DNA from: an uncultured Clostridia bacterium
GTDB lineage: Bacteria; Bacillota; Clostridia; Christensenellales; UBA1242
NCBI GenBank assembly: GCA_944345365.1
Contig: CALVMJ010000001.1
Coordinates: 3,760-67,759 of the forward strand
Direction: 5' to 3'
DNA: 64,000 bases
A program made the translations under genes and the position numbers. Under the pieces are notes generated by a model. The model saw nothing but the letters and a program-made list of their open reading frames with translations, ran no database searches and was not told where the DNA came from. Within the stretch, counting starts at the first letter, position 1, and each line of letters begins with the position of its first letter. This document shows positions 3,728 to 64,000 of the stretch, piece by piece.

Positions 3728-4555
3728 ATGGCTATTAAAACTAAAAATCCTACATCAGCAGGAACAAGATTCTATACATCAGCTACATTTGATGAGATTA
3801 CAAAAAAGACTCCTGAAAAATCTCTCCTCGCTGTTAAGAAAAAACACGCTGGAAGAAATTTTCAAGGAAGAATTACTGTTAGACATCAAGGTGGTGGCAA
3901 CAGACAAAAATATCGTATTATAGATTTCAAAAGAAACAAAGACAACATTCCTGCAAAAGTTGTTGGAATTGAATACGATCCAAATAGAACTGCATATATC
4001 GCTTTGCTTACTTATGCAGATGGAGAAAAGAGATATATTATTGCACCATTAGGACTTAAAGTTGGAGAAATTTTAATGAGTGGTTCTAATATTGAAATTA
4101 AAGTCGGAAATAATCTTCCGTTGTCCGATATCCCAGTTGGTTCAATGGTTCATAACATTGAGCTTCAACCTAAGAAAGGTGGACAAATTGCTCGTTCTGC
4201 CGGAGCTGAGGTTCAACTTATGGCAAAAGAAGGCAATTATGCAACATTAAAAATGCCAAGTGGAGAAATGAGAAAGGTTTTGCTTTCTTGTAGGGCTACT
4301 ATCGGAACTGTTGGAAATCTTGACCATGAATTAATTTCAATTGGTAAAGCTGGAAGAAAAAGACACATGGGTGTTAGACCTACCGTTCGTGGTGTTGCAA
4401 TGAACCCTAACGATCACCCACACGGAGGAGGAGAAGGTAAGTCGCCTGTTGGAATGAAATCACCTGTTACTCCATGGGGTAAACCTGCTCTTGGTCTTAA
4501 AACTAGAAAGAGAAAAAATCGCTCTAACCGCTTAATGGTTAAGAGAGTTAATTAG
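3728..4555 (+). CDS. rplB: 50S ribosomal protein L2
   Basis: [34 protein letters not shown]. Confidence 0.98.
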
Positions 4556-56041: not shown

Positions 56042-56995
56042 ATGGAAATATTTTATGTTTTAACATTTATCTTAGCACTAATTATTGGACTTATATTAGT
56101 CTATCCAACAATTTTTTTGTGCAAAAAACTTAAAGTTTCACAAACAACACTGCATTATGTTGAAAAACATTCTTCTAAATCGGGCACACCTACAATGGGT
56201 GGGGTAATTTTTATTGTTTCAGCTATTTTGAGTTGTTTTTGGTTTTTTAGAGGAGAAGTCTTAACTGCCTGGCTTTGCCTGCTTGTTATGGTGGGTTATG
56301 GAGTGCTTGGGTTTTTAGATGATTTTATAAAAGTTAGGTTTCATCAAAACGAAGGCCTAAGACCATATCAAAAGATAATTGGACAAGTTGGTATAGCAAT
56401 AATTATGGCACTATATGTCTTCTTTAAAGTTGGGACAAGCCTTGATTTTTTTGGTGTTACAATTAATCTTGGCTGGTTTATAATACCATTTGTTATGCTG
56501 GTTTATTTAGCTACCACAAACAGCGTCAACTTAACCGATGGGCTTGACGGACTTGCCGGAGGAGTGAGTTTAGTGTTTTTGGTATTTTTCGGTATTATTT
56601 TAACTATGACTACGGGGCAGGAAAATCTTGCGCTTTGCTGTTTTTCTATGGTTGGAGGATTGCTTGCATTTTTGTCAGCAAATGCCTTTCCTGCCAAAAT
56701 TTTTATGGGCGACACAGGCTCTCTTGCTTTGGGAGGTTTTATTGCAAGCGTTTGCTGTCTTTCTGGAAAAGCTCTATTATTGCCAATTATAGGGCTTATG
56801 TTTGTTCTATCAGCTCTTTCTGACATAATTCAAGTTCTTCACTACAAAAGGACCAAAAAGAGAATTTTTTTGATGGCTCCTTTACATCATCATTTTGAAC
56901 AAAAAGGTGTGAATGAAAATCGCATTGTCGTAATATATATAGTTATGACAACTATCCTTGGAACACTATGCTTGTGCTTGGAGTTAGTCTTTTAG
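56042..56995 (+). CDS. mraY: phospho-MurNAc-pentapeptide transferase
   Basis: KSGTPTMGG, NLTDGLDGL, FMGDTGS, MAPLHHHFE. Confidence 0.96.
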   Translation: MEIFYVLTFILALIIGLILVYPTIFLCKKLKVSQTTLHYVEKHSSKSGTPTMGGVIFIVSAILSCFWFFRGEVLTAWLCLLVMVGYGVLGFLDDFIKVRFHQNEGLRPYQKIIGQVGIAIIMALYVFFKVGTSLDFFGVTINLGWFIIPFVMLVYLATTNSVNLTDGLDGLAGGVSLVFLVFFGIILTMTTGQENLALCCFSMVGGLLAFLSANAFPAKIFMGDTGSLALGGFIASVCCLSGKALLLPIIGLMFVLSALSDIIQVLHYKRTKKRIFLMAPLHHHFEQKGVNENRIVVIYIVMTTILGTLCLCLELVF

Positions 56996-57003
56996 GAGTT
57001 TTT

Positions 57004-58305
57004 ATGCGATATTTTAAAGGCAAGAGAGTGCTGGTTTACGGAATGGGAATCAGTGGACAATCTGCCTGTAAGCTTCTTCACTCTTATGATGCTTGCGTAA
57101 GTATATACGACGAAGATAAACGCTTTTCAAATCTTTTTTGTTTTGAAAACAACCCAATGGGAAAGGAATATGATTTGGTGGTTGTATCACCGGGTGTAAA
57201 AGTAATTGGAAATAAAATAATTAAACATTTTATAGACCAGAAAGTTTCGGTAATTTCCGAAATTGATCTTGGCTATTCCTTTTTAGAGGGAAAACTTGTG
57301 GCTATAACCGGAACAAACGGCAAAACTACCGTCACTAGCCTTTTGGGAGATATTTTCAAAAAGGACGGAAAAGAAACTTTTGTTTGTGGGAACATTGGGC
57401 TACCTCTTTCTGCAATTGCTTCAAGCACGACAAAAAAAAGCTTTACAGTTTGCGAGGTGAGTAATTTTCAACTGGAACTATCCAAAGTTTTTAATCCCGA
57501 CATTGCCTGCATCTTAAACTTGCAAGAAGATCACATCGATCGCCACGGAAATTTTGCTGAGTATGTTAGAGTCAAAAACAAAATCAGCCAAAATTTTTCA
57601 AAGGCAAATCTTTTGGTATATAACTTAGACGATGACAACTGTGGCCTTGTAGATTTGACTAAAAACACAAGTACTTTTTCAAAACAAGAGCAAAAAAGAG
57701 GAAGCTATGTAAAAGACGGAGAAATTTTTTTCAACAAAACAAAAATTATGCCGGTTAGCGATGTCCCTTTAATTGGAGATAAAAATTTGGAGAATGTGCT
57801 TGCTTGTGTAAATATTGCTATGCACTGCAAGGTAAAAATTAACAATTTAAAAGATGCCATAAAGGACTTTATTCCACCAGCTCACAGACTTGAATTTGTT
57901 GGAAAGTTTAATGGTGTGGAATTTTTTAACGACTCAAAATCCACAAATGTTGCGTGTGTTGAAATGGCAATTGAAAGTTTAAAAAGAAAGAATCTCATTC
58001 TTTTGCTTGGAGGACAAAACAAGGATTGCAACTTTGCACATATGTTCACAAAAGGATATGACATTAAAGAAGTGATTTGTTTTGGAAGTGCTGGGCAGTC
58101 AATTTTTATCACGGCAAAATCCCATGGATATAATGTGAAAAAATTTGACAAAATGGAAGATGCAGTGATTAATGTAATAAAAGAGGCAAAGCAAGACGAT
58201 TGTGTTTTGCTTTCACCGGGGTGTGCAAGCTTCGATGAATTTACATCTTATGTTGCAAGAGGTCAACTCTTTAAGGAAATTGTTTGTGAAAGTTTTAAAG
58301 AATAA
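57004..58305 (+). CDS. murD: UDP-MurNAc-L-Ala--D-Glu ligase
   Basis: ITGTNGKTT, EVSNFQLE, NDSKSTN, LSPGCASFD; ATG 57004. Confidence 0.95.
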   Translation: MRYFKGKRVLVYGMGISGQSACKLLHSYDACVSIYDEDKRFSNLFCFENNPMGKEYDLVVVSPGVKVIGNKIIKHFIDQKVSVISEIDLGYSFLEGKLVAITGTNGKTTVTSLLGDIFKKDGKETFVCGNIGLPLSAIASSTTKKSFTVCEVSNFQLELSKVFNPDIACILNLQEDHIDRHGNFAEYVRVKNKISQNFSKANLLVYNLDDDNCGLVDLTKNTSTFSKQEQKRGSYVKDGEIFFNKTKIMPVSDVPLIGDKNLENVLACVNIAMHCKVKINNLKDAIKDFIPPAHRLEFVGKFNGVEFFNDSKSTNVACVEMAIESLKRKNLILLLGGQNKDCNFAHMFTKGYDIKEVICFGSAGQSIFITAKSHGYNVKKFDKMEDAVINVIKEAKQDDCVLLSPGCASFDEFTSYVARGQLFKEIVCESFKE

Positions 58306-59404
58306 AAAAATCAAATTTGAAAAATCTTCTTTTATTGTTTGTTTGCTTGTAATTTTGCTTGTGGCTTTTGGTTGCATTATGGTTTACAGTGCAAGTATGT
58401 ATTCTGCTCAATACCATTTTGGAAACTCAAAGTTCTTTCTTTATAAGCAAATCTTAGGAGCAGTACTTGGGCTTGCTCTTATGATTTTTTTTGCTTTTTT
58501 TGACTATCATTCATTAAAAAAGTTTAGGTGGATTGCTTTAATCGTAACAACAATTTTACTTGTCTTGGTTTTTATCCCAGGAATAGGAGTGGAAAGTTAT
58601 GGAGCAAAAAGATGGGTGAGTATTTTAGGTTTTTCAATTCAACCATCAGAAGTTGCCAAATTTACCTTGGTTTTGTTCTGTGCAAGTTACCTTTCCGACA
58701 ATCACGAAAAAATAAAAAACTTTAAAACATTGCTCCCAGTGGTGTTCGTAGCAGGAGCTCTTTGCCTTTTAGTTATTTTAGAGCCAAGTATGAGTGTGAC
58801 GATGTGTTTGCTTTTGATAACATTTTTTATGCTTGTTGCAGGAGGAATAACAAAAAAACACACCATAATGTTTTCTATTCCAGCCGTTTTGGCTGTTCCA
58901 GCATTAATAATCGCAGAGCCTTACCGTCTAAAACGACTTTTTGCCTTCATAAATCCTTGGGCTTCTCCTCAGGGGGAAGGATTTCAACTTATCCAGTCGC
59001 TATACTCACTTGGCAATGGGGGGTGGTTTGGAGTTGGCCTTTTTGCATCCAGACAAAAATATCTGTTTTTGCCTTTTGCTGAATCTGATTTCATATTTTC
59101 TATAATAGGAGAGGAATTAGGGTTTGTGGGCGTGACAATGGTCATCTTGGCATTTTTGACGCTAATATATTTTCTCATTAAAATTGCTTTAAACGCCAAA
59201 GACAGATTTGGTGCTTTGCTTGCAAGTGGAGTCGCCTTTGTAATTGGAGTTCAAACGCTTCTAAATATAGCCGTTGTTACCGGCTCAATTCCACCAACAG
59301 GGTTGCCACTTCCGTTTATTTCAAGTGGTGGCACTTCCGTTATGATGTTTATGGCGGGGATTGGGGTGTGTTTGAATGTTGCAAGACAGAGTAAGAATCA
59401 ATAA
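58286..59404 (+). CDS. ftsW: SEDS peptidoglycan polymerase FtsW/SpoVE
   Basis: GAKRW, IQPSE.AK, FLPFAESDFIF, TG.PLPFIS.GG; GTG 58286 after AAGGA is the probable start. Confidence 0.93.
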   Translation: MKVLKNKKIKFEKSSFIVCLLVILLVAFGCIMVYSASMYSAQYHFGNSKFFLYKQILGAVLGLALMIFFAFFDYHSLKKFRWIALIVTTILLVLVFIPGIGVESYGAKRWVSILGFSIQPSEVAKFTLVLFCASYLSDNHEKIKNFKTLLPVVFVAGALCLLVILEPSMSVTMCLLLITFFMLVAGGITKKHTIMFSIPAVLAVPALIIAEPYRLKRLFAFINPWASPQGEGFQLIQSLYSLGNGGWFGVGLFASRQKYLFLPFAESDFIFSIIGEELGFVGVTMVILAFLTLIYFLIKIALNAKDRFGALLASGVAFVIGVQTLLNIAVVTGSIPPTGLPLPFISSGGTSVMMFMAGIGVCLNVARQSKNQ

Positions 59405-59418
59405 ATTTAAAATTTTTG

Positions 59419-59447
59419 TTGATTTACAATTTTTATTTTGATATACT
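59419..59447 (+). promoter_or_regulatory. sigma-A promoter of first cargo gene
   Basis: TTGATT, 17 bp, TATACT with TG extension. Confidence 0.7.
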
Positions 59448-59468
59448 TTAATTACAAAGGAGAAAATT

Positions 59469-60014
59469 ATGAGAAATTATTTTATAATACATGGGACATT
59501 CGGTCACAATAAAGAAAATTGGTTCCCTTGGCTTGAGAATAAATTAATTAAGAAAGGAGAAGTTTTTAATTTAAATTATCCCACTCCTGAAAATCAATCA
59601 TTCGAAAGTTGGTCAAAAGTTTTAGATAAATATAAAGATAAAATCACAAGCGAAACAGTATTTATTTGTCATAGTATTGGTTGTATCTTCTTGATTAAAT
59701 ATTGCATTTTTAATAAGATAAAGATAGATAAAGCTATTTTTGTTAGTGGTTGTAATAACTATTATTTTGATCCTAAATTTGATGAAATAAACAAAGATAT
59801 GTATACTGATAGAATTTCGGAATTTAAAAATTATTGTGACAATGTTATTTGTTTTTATTCAAAAGATGATCCTTATATAAAATTTAATCAACTGCAAATA
59901 TTTGCTCATTCTGTTTATGCTATACATAAAATTTATGAACATGCAGGACATTTTAATGAAAAGGCGGGCTATAAAAAGTTTGAAGATATTTTACCTTATA
60001 TTTTTAGCAAATAA
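59469..60014 (+). CDS. RBBP9/YdeN-family alpha/beta hydrolase
   Basis: IIHG.FG....NWFPWL, CHSIGC, SKDDPY, AGHFN. Confidence 0.88.
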   Translation: MRNYFIIHGTFGHNKENWFPWLENKLIKKGEVFNLNYPTPENQSFESWSKVLDKYKDKITSETVFICHSIGCIFLIKYCIFNKIKIDKAIFVSGCNNYYFDPKFDEINKDMYTDRISEFKNYCDNVICFYSKDDPYIKFNQLQIFAHSVYAIHKIYEHAGHFNEKAGYKKFEDILPYIFSK

Positions 60015-60037
60015 AAAAGTATTTAGTGCATTAACTC

Positions 60038-60175
60038 GTGGTAACGGGTAGCATCCCGCCAACAGGTCTGCCACTTCCCTTTATTTCAAGTGATGGAACT
60101 TCCGTTATGATGTTTATGGCTGGGATTGGCGTGTGTTTGAATGTGCTTTGGCAGAGTAATAAGAATAATATTTAA
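60038..60175 (+). pseudogene. orphan copy of ftsW 3' end (in frame, no start codon)
   Basis: Reads VVTGSIPPTGLPLPFISSDGTSVMMFMAGIGVCLNVLWQSNKNNI*; 35 of 36 residues match FtsW VVTG...CLNV. Confidence 0.95.
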
Positions 60176-60279
60176 TAAAAGGTAAAAGTACACAAATTGT
60201 TTTTAAATTATATGCTTTTTCTTAATTGCTGTGATATATTAAAAAGCGATGGATATTATTAATTGGCGTTGGGGGATTT

Positions 60280-60924
60280 ATGAATAAACAAATGTTGGAA
60301 ATATTAAAAAATTGCAAATGTTTTATATTTGATTTTGACGGGACTTTGATAGATTCGGAGCCTTATCATATGAAGGCTCATAACATGGTGATGTCTTCCA
60401 TTTTGAAGAAAGAAATTCATTTAAATAACATTAGTTTTCAAAAATATTTAGGAAAAAACGACGAAGAGATTTATAATCTGTTTAAGGAAGAGAATGGTGT
60501 GGATTTTGATATAAAAGATGCTGTGCTCAAAAAACAAATTGTGGCCCGAGATTTGTTGCTAGATAATAAAGTTGAGATTTTTGATTATTTTTTTGAGGTT
60601 GAAAAGTTGAAGAACAAGCAAAAAAAATTTTATATATTATCCAATCAATGCAAAATGATATTAGAAGATGTTTTAAAATCTAAAAAAATTCTTAATAAAT
60701 TTCAAAGAATATTTTGCTTGCCAGAAATGAAAATATTGAAAAAATATTTTCTTGAAAATTTTTCAAAATATATTAAAGATGCTGACTTTTGTGATGTTGT
60801 ATTATTTGAGGACTCGGCATCGACCATTGATGTCGCTCATAAGTTAGGAATGAAAACAATAGGAATTGAAACAAAAATGAATGAGGATAAAATTAAAAAT
60901 TCAGACTATTTAATAAAGATTTGA
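60280..60924 (+). CDS. HAD-superfamily phosphatase (beta-PGM-like)
   Basis: FDFDGTLIDSE motif I, LSN motif II, FEDS motif IV. Confidence 0.88.
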   Translation: MNKQMLEILKNCKCFIFDFDGTLIDSEPYHMKAHNMVMSSILKKEIHLNNISFQKYLGKNDEEIYNLFKEENGVDFDIKDAVLKKQIVARDLLLDNKVEIFDYFFEVEKLKNKQKKFYILSNQCKMILEDVLKSKKILNKFQRIFCLPEMKILKKYFLENFSKYIKDADFCDVVLFEDSASTIDVAHKLGMKTIGIETKMNEDKIKNSDYLIKI

Positions 60925-60967
60925 AATTTATTGAGAGAAATTTTACTAAATTATAGTGTAATAATTT

Positions 60968-61074
60968 GCTGTAACCGTCTCTATTGCACAAAAGTTTGTT
61001 ACTTCCATTCTTATTAAGTGGCAGAACTTCCTTTATGATGTTTATGGCTGGGATTGGCGTGTGTTTGAATGTTG
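60968..61074 (+). pseudogene. second, decayed orphan copy of ftsW 3' end
   Basis: GCTGTAACCGTCTCTATT aligns to GTTGTTACCGGCTCAATT; ~2-nt deletion; 61033-61072 identical to 60105-60144. Confidence 0.9.
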
Positions 61075-61093
61075 TTAAGGGGAAATTAGGGTA

Positions 61094-61122
61094 TTGACTC
61101 TTGTAATTTTCTGTGTTATTAT
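61094..61122 (+). promoter_or_regulatory. sigma-A promoter of HD gene
   Basis: TTGACT, 17 bp, TATTAT with TG extension; GAGGAG RBS. Confidence 0.75.
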
Positions 61123-61143
61123 AAGAATCAAGAGGAGTAAAAA

Positions 61144-61794
61144 ATGAAAGAAAAAAATGTTATTGAGTTTTATGTGCTTTGCAATAAATTAAAAGATGTT
61201 GTTAGGACAGGTTGGAAAAATTGGGGAGTTAACCGATTTAGAGTTGAAAGCATAGCAGAGCATATTTATGGGGCGCAAATGCTTGCTATTGGTATGTGGT
61301 CAGAGTTTAAATATGATATTGATATAGCGAAAGTTTTGACCATGCTTGCTGTGCACGAAGTTGAAGAAATTGTTATAGGGGACTTGACACAATGGCAAAT
61401 AACTAAAGATGAAAAATTAATTAAAGGTAAAGAAGCCGTAAGGAAGGTTTTTTCTAAATTAGGGAATGCTAAGAAATTTGAAGATTTGATTGATGAATTT
61501 AATGCAAAACAAACGAAAGAAGCTAAATTTGCCTATTTCTGCGATAAATTAGAATGTGATCTACAAAGTAAGATCTATGATGAAGAAGGTTGTGTTGATT
61601 TAAACAATCAAGAAAACAATAATTCGGCTAAGGATAAAGATGTTAAAGAAATGTTAGAAAATGGTTATTCTTTTTCTAAGATGTGGCAAACTTTTGGACT
61701 TAAAAAGTATAATTATGATGATAATTTTGCAAATGTTTCAAAATATGCTATGGGAGTTGATATTTTAAGAGAATCCAAAGATAAACAAAAATAG
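61144..61794 (+). CDS. HD-domain hydrolase (YfbR/HDDC2-like 5'-deoxynucleotidase family)
   Basis: LKD.VRTGW, ESIAEH, HE..E...GD, DKLE. Confidence 0.82.
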   Translation: MKEKNVIEFYVLCNKLKDVVRTGWKNWGVNRFRVESIAEHIYGAQMLAIGMWSEFKYDIDIAKVLTMLAVHEVEEIVIGDLTQWQITKDEKLIKGKEAVRKVFSKLGNAKKFEDLIDEFNAKQTKEAKFAYFCDKLECDLQSKIYDEEGCVDLNNQENNNSAKDKDVKEMLENGYSFSKMWQTFGLKKYNYDDNFANVSKYAMGVDILRESKDKQK

Positions 61795-61872
61795 CTTTAA
61801 GATCAATTAAGAAATGTGATCAAAGCTATGTGCTTACAATACTAAAAATTGATAGTAGAATCTAATAAATAG

Positions 61873-61909
61873 AAGGCGCTAGAAGTTAGACTTTTTAGCG
61901 CTTTTTTTT
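61873..61909 (+). terminator. intrinsic terminator
   Basis: GCGCTAGAAG / CTTTTTAGCGC stem followed by T8. Confidence 0.7.
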
Positions 61910-61974
61910 GTGTCGAGATTTTGTTTTTTTGCATAAAATGTTAAAGTAGGGATTTGTTTTTATGCGGAGGAAAA

Positions 61975-63228
61975 ATGTCTAAGTTTGTGATTAACGGGGG
62001 TAATAAATTGGTCGGAGAAATTGATATTTCTTGTGCCAAAAACTCACTTTTAACTATTCTTGCAGGGTGTATTTTGTCAGAAGGAGAAATTGTCCTTCAT
62101 AAATATCCCAGCTATACCGACACGGAATGTATGTGCAACATCTTAAAGCATCTTGGAGCAAAAATTAAAAAGGAAGGAGAGGTTTTGGTCGTTGACTCCT
62201 CCTCTTTAAATTCTTTTGACATTCCAACCGAACTTGCTTGCCTTGTTCGATCTTCTATCTTTGCCCTTGGTGCAATCATAGGAAAGTTCAAAAAGGCAAA
62301 AGTGGCTTATCCCGGTGGGTGTGAAATTGGTGCAAGACCTATTGACATTCATCTTTCTGGGCTAAGGCAACTGGGAGTTAAAATTACTGAAAGACATGGA
62401 TACATATATTGTGATGGAAAAGATATGCACAGCGCCACGATTATGCTTGATTTTCCAAGTGTAGGAGCAACCGAAAACTTAATAATGGCAAGTGTGTTGA
62501 CTAAAGGTGAAACAGTTATTTATAACTGTGCAAAAGAGCCGGAGATTGTTGATTTGCAGGAGTTTTTAAATTTGTTAGGTGCAAAAATATCCGGAGCAGG
62601 CACTGAAAAAATTGTCATAAATGGAGTGGCTAAACTTGGAGGGGGAGAATTTACTCCAATAAGAGACAGAATTGTTGCGGGAACATACATGATTGCATGT
62701 GCAATGTGTGGTGGGGATATTTCTTTAAATGGGGCTAATCCCGAGCATCTTCAAAGCGTTATAACCAAATTAAATAAAACTGCTTGTCAAATTGAAGCTA
62801 GTTGTGATAAAATTAGGGTGAAATCTGATGGAAAGCCTTTAAGCTTGAAAAAAATTGAAACTTCTGTTTATCCAGGTATTCCAACCGACCTTCAAGCACA
62901 ACTTTTGGCACTTCAATGTGTGAGCAATGGTTCATGTATGATAATCGAAAACCTTTTTGAATCGAGATTTAAGCATGTGCCTGAATTAATTAAAATGGGA
63001 GCAGACATCCATCTTAGAGATAGAGTTGCCTTTGTCAGAGGTGTTCCAAAACTATTTGGAGCAGAGGTCTTTGGAATGGATTTGAGAGGTACGGCGAGTT
63101 TGATTCTTGCAGGACTTTGTGCCGAGGGATATAGCGTTGTCAATAACGCAAGGCATATTGACAGGGGGTATAATAGGATTGAAAGAGAACTTTCTAGTTT
63201 AGGGGCAGATATAAAAAGGGTGGATTGA
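61975..63228 (+). CDS. murA: UDP-GlcNAc 1-carboxyvinyltransferase
   Basis: AKNS, PGGCEIGARPIDIH, PSVGATEN, DLRG, HIDRGY; ATG 61975 after GGAGG. Confidence 0.95.
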   Translation: MSKFVINGGNKLVGEIDISCAKNSLLTILAGCILSEGEIVLHKYPSYTDTECMCNILKHLGAKIKKEGEVLVVDSSSLNSFDIPTELACLVRSSIFALGAIIGKFKKAKVAYPGGCEIGARPIDIHLSGLRQLGVKITERHGYIYCDGKDMHSATIMLDFPSVGATENLIMASVLTKGETVIYNCAKEPEIVDLQEFLNLLGAKISGAGTEKIVINGVAKLGGGEFTPIRDRIVAGTYMIACAMCGGDISLNGANPEHLQSVITKLNKTACQIEASCDKIRVKSDGKPLSLKKIETSVYPGIPTDLQAQLLALQCVSNGSCMIIENLFESRFKHVPELIKMGADIHLRDRVAFVRGVPKLFGAEVFGMDLRGTASLILAGLCAEGYSVVNNARHIDRGYNRIERELSSLGADIKRVD

Positions 63229-64000
63229 TGAAGAAAAAGCTTATAATATCAATTTCGGCTTTGCTAGGTGTTATTACTGTTGTTTTAACGCTTTGTTTTA
63301 CTGTGTTTACAGTGAAGGAAGTTGAAATTGATTTTAGGACAAGCCTAGAACAACCCTATAATGAAGAAGAGATTATTAAAGAGGCAAATATAGATTTTGG
63401 AAAATGCTTGCTTTTTATGTCAAAAACCGGGTATATAAAGAGAATTGAAGAAAAATTCCCTTATTTAGAGGTAATAAATATTGAAACTGTTTTTCCATCA
63501 AAACTCGTTATTCATTGCGCCGAAAGGCAAGAACTTTTCGCTTTTCAAAAAGACGATCAGATGGCTTTGTTAGATAAGGATTTTAAAGTTCTTAGTGTGG
63601 AGCAAGGAAATTTTGAAAGCGATAAGGAAAATCCTATTCTAATCAAGGGCTTGACTTTTGAAGGAGAAATTTATGAAGGGAAGTTTTTGGATATAACCGA
63701 GAACGGGCTTAAAAGATTTTATTCCTCAATGCTTGAAAACAACAAAACTCTTCCACAAGTTCTTGGTTTTTGCAAGGAGCTCTTTGTTTACAGTGAGTAT
63801 AATCCGCTTACTAATAGCAATGAAACAAATATTGTTATAACGACTTTCAAAAATCGAGAAATTAAAATTTTAAATATAGATGTAAATTTAAGTCGTAAGA
63901 TGCAAAGAATGTTTCAGGTTTTACCGATGCTCTATGACCTTTTGGTAATTAATGGGGATTACACAAGTGAAGAAGTGGACAGATGTGCAATTGTGATAGG
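63228..64000 (+). CDS. FtsQ/DivIB-like cell division protein (partial, runs off window)
   Basis: MKKKLIISISALLGV.. single TM then POTRA-like FTVKEVEI..IE.KFPY.EVINIE.VFPS.L.I...ER; ATG overlaps murA TGA. Confidence 0.75.
   Translation, partial: MKKKLIISISALLGVITVVLTLCFTVFTVKEVEIDFRTSLEQPYNEEEIIKEANIDFGKCLLFMSKTGYIKRIEEKFPYLEVINIETVFPSKLVIHCAERQELFAFQKDDQMALLDKDFKVLSVEQGNFESDKENPILIKGLTFEGEIYEGKFLDITENGLKRFYSSMLENNKTLPQVLGFCKELFVYSEYNPLTNSNETNIVITTFKNREIKILNIDVNLSRKMQRMFQVLPMLYDLLVINGDYTSEEVDRCAIVI

Follow-up and report, generated by a model that had tools for sequence, protein, structure and literature searches.

To our knowledge, integrons have until now been the one well-studied array dedicated to the capture of single genes. 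We know of essentially no integrons in the phylum of the bacteria described here, and of little that explains how genomes as small as theirs gain genes. ICESt1/3 at fda, the staphylococcal cassette chromosome (SCC) at rlmH, and the integrase-less cis-mobilizable elements (CIMEs) are related target-site elements. Target regeneration is known from genomic islands at tRNA and tmRNA genes (Islander, PMC4383910) and from SGI1, an integrative element at trmE (PMC2297512), and in tycheposons successive integrations push older elements further in (bioRxiv 10.1101/2020.12.28.424599). The pdif modules of Acinetobacter lie mostly on plasmids, between 28-bp dif-like sites whose orientation alternates (PMC12907356). 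Here we analyze a 64,000-nt stretch of DNA from an uncultured Clostridia bacterium (GCA_944345365.1, contig CALVMJ010000001.1, forward-strand positions 3,760 to 67,759), called the window below, which is part of one contig of a 914-kb genome that is 98% complete. Between ftsW, the gene for an essential cell-wall polymerase, and murA, the window carries an array of single-gene cassettes. The 3′ end that ftsW now uses came with a cassette, its former end lies farther along the array, and the newest cassette adjoins ftsW.

A first-pass annotation of the window had proposed such an array, without an integrase and regenerating the 3′ end of ftsW, and its interpretation is supported in every part that could be tested. 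It placed extra ftsW 3′ copies downstream of ftsW, separating single genes, and repeat comparison shows two of them, both beginning at the VVTG codons of ftsW (59273) as it had read them. The three copies, including the resident one, share a 79-nt core (59301-59379, 60066-60144 and 60994-61072; identities 91%, 100% and 85%) 765 and 928 nt apart. The alignment of the first with the second extends over 139 nt at 80% identity (59272-59410 against 60037-60175), and the three are the only ftsW tail copies in the whole 914-kb genome. Strain comparisons used assembled contigs, among them a European Nucleotide Archive (ENA) scaffold and Logan contigs of sequencing runs that include X4 and X6-X8. The ENA scaffold has one mismatch to the window in 8026 nt and possibly comes from the same sample. 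A Logan contig of an independent run is 96% identical and has the same three-cargo layout, so the arrangement is not an assembly artefact; the chimeric assembly of strain haplotypes that the annotation had named as a danger is not what is seen here.

Strains of the window's species differ widely at this locus. At least seven array states occur at an ftsW identity of at least 98%. The window has a serine hydrolase, a HAD and an HD gene between ftsW and murA. Strain L088 has the same order with a serine hydrolase 42% identical to that of the window, L086 has the HD gene only, and L091 has two mTERF genes, a GATase, an HD fragment and an HD gene. L094 carries one 185-aa gene, L095 carries the L094 arrangement plus a 773-nt serine hydrolase cassette in first position, and in L096 a SUKH gene comes after a tail of foreign type. 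The interval holds no genes at all in a contig of run X4, where 59386 is joined to 61876. Within the species, six different FtsW C-termini sit on bodies that are at least 98% identical.

Two pairs of strains give before and after states. In the first, the displaced copy of L095 ends exactly with the ftsW end of L094. In the second, the window equals L086 plus two cassettes, and the L086-type end (..NVVKGKL(E/G)Y*) with its downstream DNA is retained in copy 2. The resident tails of the window and L086 are 13% divergent (8 synonymous changes in 63 nt) on gene bodies that differ by about 2%, and the jump in divergence begins right after GTTGTTAC, exactly at the junction. Therefore the ftsW end is cassette-borne and new cassettes enter beside ftsW, with the older end pushed distally, which bears out the newest-first order of the first-pass annotation.

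The displaced tails themselves were once coding. In a set of 44 non-redundant orphan tails, the first, second and third codon positions have variabilities of 0.16, 0.09 and 0.47. TCA/AGC serine switches occur, and the amino acid replacements are conservative (S to C/L/M, I to V). This pattern fits service as the FtsW C-terminus at a time when the cassette was first in line. Before the orphan tails, the conserved arm that precedes them supplies an in-frame TAA and then a start codon (26 ATG and 17 GTG among the 44), and 28/44 of the orphan frames are open for at least 40 codons.

Two further observations concern tails in individual strains. At L091:10627-11277, the C-terminal fragment of the HD gene, its terminator and the first 19 murA codons are fused to the 3′ part of a tail, with ..AACGGGGGTAATAAATTG running directly into GGGTGTGTTTAAATGTT.., and an intact HD-terminator-murA order follows. 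This fusion is a duplication via an illegitimate junction between murA and mid-tail, and it may hint at how neighboring DNA gets packaged behind a tail. P0008 and P0011 (L096:2485-3645), two strains of the window's species, have an FtsW C-terminus of a type known from other species (..FISAGSTSLLVFMSAIGVVLNIDRQSRKSKI). Two more substitutions precede VVTG by 10-14 residues, so the segment of foreign origin may here start ahead of the usual junction.

Cassettes move between species as well as between strains. The same cargo with its tail had been predicted to turn up in other species, and it does: one GNAT cassette is present in three species (L053, L055 and L046) at 97-99% identity, against about 75% for the flanking ftsW. 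L053:708-1507 and L055:6013-6811 are 98.9% identical. The L046 copy is 96.7% identical to that of L055, while the ftsW bodies of these two are 75.5% and their upstream DNA 78.5% identical. The cassette is fused to ftsW in L055 and L046 and is internal in L053, where it follows the arm of another cassette. In a three-way alignment, identity begins at AC(A/G)GG (Thr-Gly codons) and ends right after ..GATGTTAA (..ACTGATGTTAA). Similarity between L053 and L055 ends within 0-2 nt of the right arm/tail junction, and the next tail was not co-transferred.

The cassettes share a common anatomy. In order, they consist of an ftsW tail, a promoter/operator module, one cargo gene on the same strand as ftsW, often a terminator hairpin, and a 23-nt right arm. 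The tail comprises the last ~44-45 ftsW codons, from the Thr codon of VVTGSIPPTG (residue ~359) to the stop. A part of it, GGCTCAATTCC, was considered as a tRNA-like element, a reading we rejected because it is the coding sequence for GSIP. The promoter module reads (A/G)TGTATACA-N14-TGTATACA, a T-run, TGnTATAAT (an extended -10), a ribosome-binding site and ATG. TGTATACA boxes occur in 51/90 post-tail regions, against 0.08 expected by chance, and exact double boxes are confined to the array contigs in 16 genomes. Double boxes elsewhere, which could have marked the promoter of a regulator or recombinase, were looked for in these 16 genomes, and none lies off the array contigs. A terminator-like hairpin (GAGCAA-loop-TTGCTC-T6) is found in 20/58 cassettes. 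That cassettes carry their own conserved promoter/operator and terminator is an addition to the picture given by the first-pass annotation.

The right arm is almost invariant, TATAATACAATAACTSRTGTTAA, with the consensus TATAATACAATAACT(GA/CG)TGTTAA. It is not ftsW sequence, and it is kept across lineages whose ftsW is 46-76% identical to that of the window. It holds a TATAAT, and the 14 nt between this and the tail, ACAATAACTSRTGT, with a TAAC..GTTA dyad, are equally conserved. Units have a median length of 879 nt, and 74% of them are shorter than 1.1 kb. Cargo is different nearly everywhere. GNAT acetyltransferases are commonest; other cargo includes APH-type phosphotransferases, NUDIX, HD and HAD proteins, serine hydrolases, a PnuC-type transporter, BspA-type LRR proteins, a SUKH protein, mTERF, DUF2262, DUF4116 and many proteins without a family. 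No recombinase or transposase was found among the cargo in Pfam scans of ~60 array open reading frames (no PF00589 or PF00239).

The arrays recur in related genomes. A 44-aa tail search of 61 genomes of the genus gave one match within ftsW in every genome and extra short-frame tail copies just downstream of ftsW in at least 8/61. As the annotation had anticipated, relatives vary in the number and kind of cargo. Between ftsW and murA there can be as little as 133 nt or more than 6 kb, and the gene content of this interval differs in nearly every species. The ftsW codon at which orphan copies begin (residue ~358) is the same in nearly all genomes, and the conserved arm precedes the copies. With up to 2 mismatches allowed, 10/154 genomes of the genus contain the arm motif; the GTDB species set has it in 24 stretches, and 3 metagenome contigs carry it as well. 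Nearly all matches are followed by a tail. The metagenome scan returned five stretches, three of them ordinary arrays and two chance matches without a tail. In the largest array, that of G154, 12 kb hold 10 displaced copies. The records of the GTDB set, under labels such as Ca. Caccovivens and Ca. Onthoplasma, are Clostridia metagenome-assembled genomes (MAGs) of animal-gut origin, and host genomes are smaller than 1.3 Mb. The motif matches only 3 of 401 genomes sampled across the order, and only 21 of the 401 belong to the window's own family; the system thus seems to be restricted largely to that family and close relatives. One MAG, G024, contains two ~95%-identical versions of the locus on contigs C45 and C39 (L016, L015). 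In one version 133 nt separate ftsW from murA; the other begins with the tail and carries 1.1 kb of cargo ahead of murA, which points to co-binned strains with different states of the hot spot.

Integrons are the nearest likeness in outcome. Both systems form polar, co-oriented arrays of mostly single-gene cassettes of 0.5-1 kb, each cassette ends in a conserved element that resembles a recombination site, and the newest cassette lies beside a fixed site. Both have cargo rich in GNATs and proteins of no assigned function, and cassettes common to several species. The parts, however, are different. No intI lies beside the ftsW arrays (no PF00589 or PF00239 domain in the array reading frames scanned), and the one tyrosine recombinase scanned with integron-integrase models scored 68 bits, far below the 265-bit cut-off. 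The repeat is a 130-nt coding copy with a 23-nt arm, judged by its sequence anatomy rather than by an attC covariance model, and not an attC hairpin. The insertion site lies inside a gene that the cassette must rebuild. Most ftsW cassettes carry their own TGnTATAAT promoter-like module instead of depending on one shared Pc, and the hosts are Clostridia. With no intI, no attC and no single Pc promoter, the ftsW arrays fall outside the definition of an integron.

Target-regenerating elements provide the second comparison. There, too, the element carries the 3′ end of its target, so that the gene is restored and the displaced fragment is left as a direct repeat. At ftsW, the cassette brings the 3′ end of the gene and the displaced fragment is found at the far end. 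Those elements, however, are kilobases long and have an integrase, their own or ancestral, whereas the ftsW units are ~0.9 kb with one gene, reach at least 10 units per array, and have ftsW as target; no cognate integrase-bearing element for them was found in viral, phage and plasmid collections. Like CIMEs, which keep att sites without an integrase, every ftsW cassette is bounded by arm+tail junctions. SCC-type elements use a Ccr large serine recombinase and the 3′ end of rlmH, in contrast to ftsW here and to five array genomes without a serine recombinase. Integrative mobile elements exploiting Xer (IMEX) and pdif modules are also small, recombinase-less units with short conserved bounding sites, moved by a housekeeping recombinase in trans, but the ftsW sites are direct repeats within a chromosomal gene and their dif-likeness is a weak lead. 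Full-text literature searches returned no paper in which cassette arrays, att sites or insertion hot spots are connected with ftsW. The ftsW arrays are best described as site-specific, target-regenerating cassettes in an integron-like array, an unusual but self-consistent architecture of which we found no description.

Our preferred explanation, held with moderate confidence, is that cassettes are mobilized in trans, inserted site-specifically at a gene-capture site between ftsW and murA, and later reshuffled through the homology of their tails. The comparisons show that a cassette sits fused in frame to ftsW at the point where TGTTA meets ACAGG, so that the essential gene now ends in the tail of the cassette. 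The earlier tail has moved downstream and stands behind the cassette's arm, and repeated insertion builds a polar array with the newest unit beside ftsW. Insertion and excision at the junction would be site-specific and pass through a circular form. The recombinase is presumably supplied in trans, since none is ever linked to the arrays; candidates are the single XerS-like tyrosine recombinase of the host or an integrase on an uncaptured helper element. Homologous recombination between the 70-130-nt tail repeats deletes, swaps and mosaicizes cassettes. There would thus be two layers, site-specific entry and spread first, followed by homology-driven reshuffling, replacement and loss. The second layer may now dominate in the window's species, because the arms there are decaying.

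An account that uses homology only seems to us unlikely. Tails, promoter modules and arms would be portable homology that spreads by DNA uptake and RecA-dependent recombination. Recombination of tail with tail would make circles, and a single crossover would return them to ftsW. The fixed boundary and the arm would be inherited from one ancestral duplication, with the arm kept for expression, since it supplies the TATAAT, the in-frame TAA and the ATG/GTG start of a 45-aa frame. Several of our observations weigh on this side, against site-specific entry. In L086 and in a contig of run X8, the resident tail is joined to copy 2 inside a shared stretch of 74 nt (59342 to 61041). Breakpoints of gain and loss in the window's species fall within the tail and not at the junction, and the tails are mosaics of one another. 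Such mid-tail breakpoints, among them a deletion from one tail into another, and mosaic tails are a signature of homologous recombination, which clearly also operates between tails and is a second addition to the first-pass picture. Some blocks of homology between species stop at the conserved promoter module and not at the junction. The left edge of similarity, in a comparison of an internal with a first-position cassette, would fall at the start of the tail under any mechanism. The expression signals of the arm and the open orphan frames described above suit this account as well, as does the fact that no dedicated recombinase was found.

Other evidence is hard to explain by homology only. 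Tails of different cassettes are just 65-85% alike and thus poor substrates for RecA, and the GNAT cassette crossed between species whose flanks are 75-78% identical. The sharp right edge shared by L053 and L055, where similarity stops at the arm/tail junction, is the only feature of the cassette boundaries that truly discriminates between the mechanisms. The 14 nt of ACAATAACTSRTGT with its dyad are as conserved as the TATAAT, although a promoter needs no such sequence, and homology leaves unexplained how new cargo gets into the backbone. Taken together, the fixed boundary, the conserved arm, the sharp L053/L055 edge, the conserved backbone and the RecA-poor tails favor site-specific recombination at the arm/tail junction.

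Which enzyme would act at the junction is a more specific question. The first-pass annotation had read the array as lacking an integrase, and this holds. There is no Phage_integrase or Resolvase match on the window's contig, the only ones in the genome being on contigs C2, C26 and C19, and no recombinase lies within any array. Its further expectation, a solitary recombinase that co-occurs with arrays, was not borne out. Neither serine nor non-Xer tyrosine recombinases show a consistent pattern, and no recombinase of any kind consistently accompanies the arrays, a result that tells against the preferred explanation. The window's genome has one intact tyrosine recombinase, whose best NCBIfam match is XerS (2e-49, below the cut-off), a tyrosine-recombinase fragment and one large serine recombinase. 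Orthologues of the XerS-like enzyme occur in 60/61 genomes of the genus, and it is the only recombinase found in almost every genome. No serine recombinase was found in the array genomes G015, G047, G156, G159 and G160.

One version of the preferred reading is that the cassettes hijack Xer, as IMEX and pdif modules do, the arm/tail junction being a pseudo-dif that the XerS-like enzyme would cut. We regard this version as a tentative lead with the chances against it. Besides its near-universal presence, the Xer-like enzyme is the sole tyrosine recombinase in the array genomes G047, G159, G161 and G164, and G047, G159 and G160 have no serine recombinase either; the missing of another recombinase is weak evidence because MAGs are incomplete. 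XerS systems keep their dif site directly upstream of the recombinase gene. A conserved composite palindrome, TTATTATG-N4-5-ACATAATAC(T/A)ATAT(A/T)T(T/A)GTAT, immediately precedes the single Xer-like gene in the window's genome (G000, contig C2:~120700-120760) and at the same place in G022, G011, G006, G007, G038, G030 and G051 (loci of relatives: L067, L071, L072, L075, L078, L079 and L081), and it is a candidate dif site of the window's clade. In the window's subclade the palindrome (..ATACTATATATTGTAT..) and the arm have the half-site AATACAATA in common, and the palindrome comes 16th among 1.83 million positions scored with a position weight matrix (PWM) of the arm. The score itself is weak (-0.4 bits) and the comparison was made post hoc. 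A dif-like site beside xer was also looked for in array-rich genomes and not found. Eleven array-bearing genomes, those with the best arrays among them, lack the palindrome beside xer, as do G015, G052 and G047, and more distant relatives do not have it there.

A search for a helper element covered the 154 genomes of the genus, the GTDB species set and collections of viral, phage and plasmid sequences. It turned up no larger element that bears this arm, although MAGs often miss such elements, and an arm+tail query matched no viral contig, phage or plasmid. It is possible that a helper was missed by MAG binning. No circle junctions were seen in the assembled contigs, which are prone to dropping rare forms.

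That the arrays are not mobile, and are either old tandem copies of the end of ftsW that passed down vertically and lost cargo differentially, or chimeras of haplotypes, is very improbable and already contradicted: the two haplotypes of G024, with and without the 1.1 kb of cargo, and the breaking of short-read contigs within repeats could be read that way, but the near-identity of a cassette between species with diverged flanks, the seven array states in one species and the long contigs of independent assemblies that span arrays all speak against it.

If the XerS-like host enzyme does move the cassettes, the platform needs no integrase of its own, and this would be a chromosomal cassette platform that runs without its own recombinase. 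A still larger idea is that the arrays are a second, independently evolved kind of integron, with an essential gene as anchor and its 3′ end as recombination site, per-cassette promoters under the joint control of the TGTATACA operator, an XerS-like engine, and a role as a main route of gene gain in ~1-Mb gut Clostridia. We offer this as speculation that is more likely to fail than to hold in all its parts. In any case, the ftsW locus reaches an integron-like outcome from different parts, and in Clostridia. It ties the turnover of accessory genes to an essential cell-wall polymerase, whose C-terminus is hypervariable within one species (six variants). The compact backbone of arm, tail and operator is defined by sequence and can be searched for in metagenomes. 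The arrays may also matter for traits of livestock gut commensals, as their cargo includes acetyltransferases and APH-type phosphotransferases.

The window's own cassettes keep the common backbone in a diverged state. All features of the locus lie on the forward strand. ftsW spans 58202-59404 (PF01098, FTSW_RODA_SPOVE, 2.2e-97), with its start at 58286 (372 aa) in other assemblies, and is the genome's only SEDS gene. The crossover or junction region, GTTGTTACC (59273-59281, codons V-V-T ~357-359), is where the orphan copies and the three-species cassette begin, and the sequence to its right is cassette-borne. The resident tail (59273-59404) was probably imported by cassette 1. Upstream of cargo 1 lies a degenerate promoter module (59419-59447; TTGATT-17-TATACT with TG), the positional homologue of the TGTATACA-box/TGnTATAAT module that canonical cassettes carry. 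Cargo 1 is a Ser_hydrolase of the YdeN family (59469-60014, 181 aa; PF06821, 3.2e-22). Its depth is about zero in the strains of runs X6-X8, and the allele that replaces it in L088 is 185 aa long. The right arm, or P arm, of cassette 1 (60022-60044), TTTAGTGCATTAACTCGTGGTAA, is a diverged form of TATAATACAATAACTSRTGTTAA and the top arm-PWM match genome-wide (28.7 bits). Displaced tail copy 1 (60038-60175), supported by repeats and Pfam, is an open 45-aa frame with a GTG start within the arm, and it matches the last 40 positions of the FtsW Pfam model (4.9e-9).

Cargo 2 is a HAD-family hydrolase (60280-60924, 214 aa; PF13419, 3.1e-13) that is missing in the conspecific strains L086, L094 and L095. 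The decayed right arm of cassette 2 (60952-60974), TATAGTGTAATAATTTGCTGTAA, was recognized by alignment and is the fourth-best arm-PWM match in the genome. Displaced tail copy 2 (60968-61097) was delimited by comparison with L086; its 3′ half and downstream DNA are the original ftsW end (..NVVKGKLGY*), which is the working end in L086, and the FtsW C-termini of P0001, P0007 and P0010 read ..NVVKGKLEY. The promoter-like site (61094-61122; TTGACT-17-TATTAT, TG) upstream of the HD gene and the intrinsic terminator that closes the array ahead of murA (61871-61906) are both where the first-pass annotation put them. Cargo 3 is an HD_3 phosphohydrolase (61144-61794; PF13023, 5.4e-26), with no tail remnant found after it in the window. 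It is variable, being missing in L094 and L095, and in G066 the HD gene is a first-position cassette followed by arm and tail. murA (61975-63228, start at 61954 or 61975; PF00275, 2.4e-82) is the conserved right flank of the hot spot, and its 417-aa product is identical in other strains. The surrounding division and cell wall (dcw) cluster (window 56042-63998, and in relatives) runs mraY-murD-ftsW-(array)-murA-divIB/ftsQ-ftsA-ftsZ, without murG between ftsW and murA. The SEDS tail gives a single match in most genomes of the genus, so FtsW is apparently their only SEDS protein.

Finally, many displaced tails are broken by inserts. A conserved and structured insert of ~110-115 nt lies between the LPLP and GSTS codons, with the pattern GCGTCAAAAC..GCTCGGTTTTTCCTTTTCCCC-hairpin-GGGG.CCCCAGAA, and its start shifts slightly among tail copies. 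It is carried by L013 (minus strand; units 2118 and 3117), L029 (units 2756, 3611, 5482 and 6368), L011, L042, L047, L049-L051 and L098. The insert has no Rfam match, nor does the window interval or any of four arrays. RNAalifold predicts 13 pairs, 5 of which, all in the 3′ hairpin, have changes on both sides that keep the pairing. A second, shorter hairpin insert (TTTACGCAAGAAAACAGCAGTTTTCTTATG and variants) breaks other displaced tails further 3′, in L010 (orphans 2812 and 6012), at L012:3602 and in the L051 tail near 1519.

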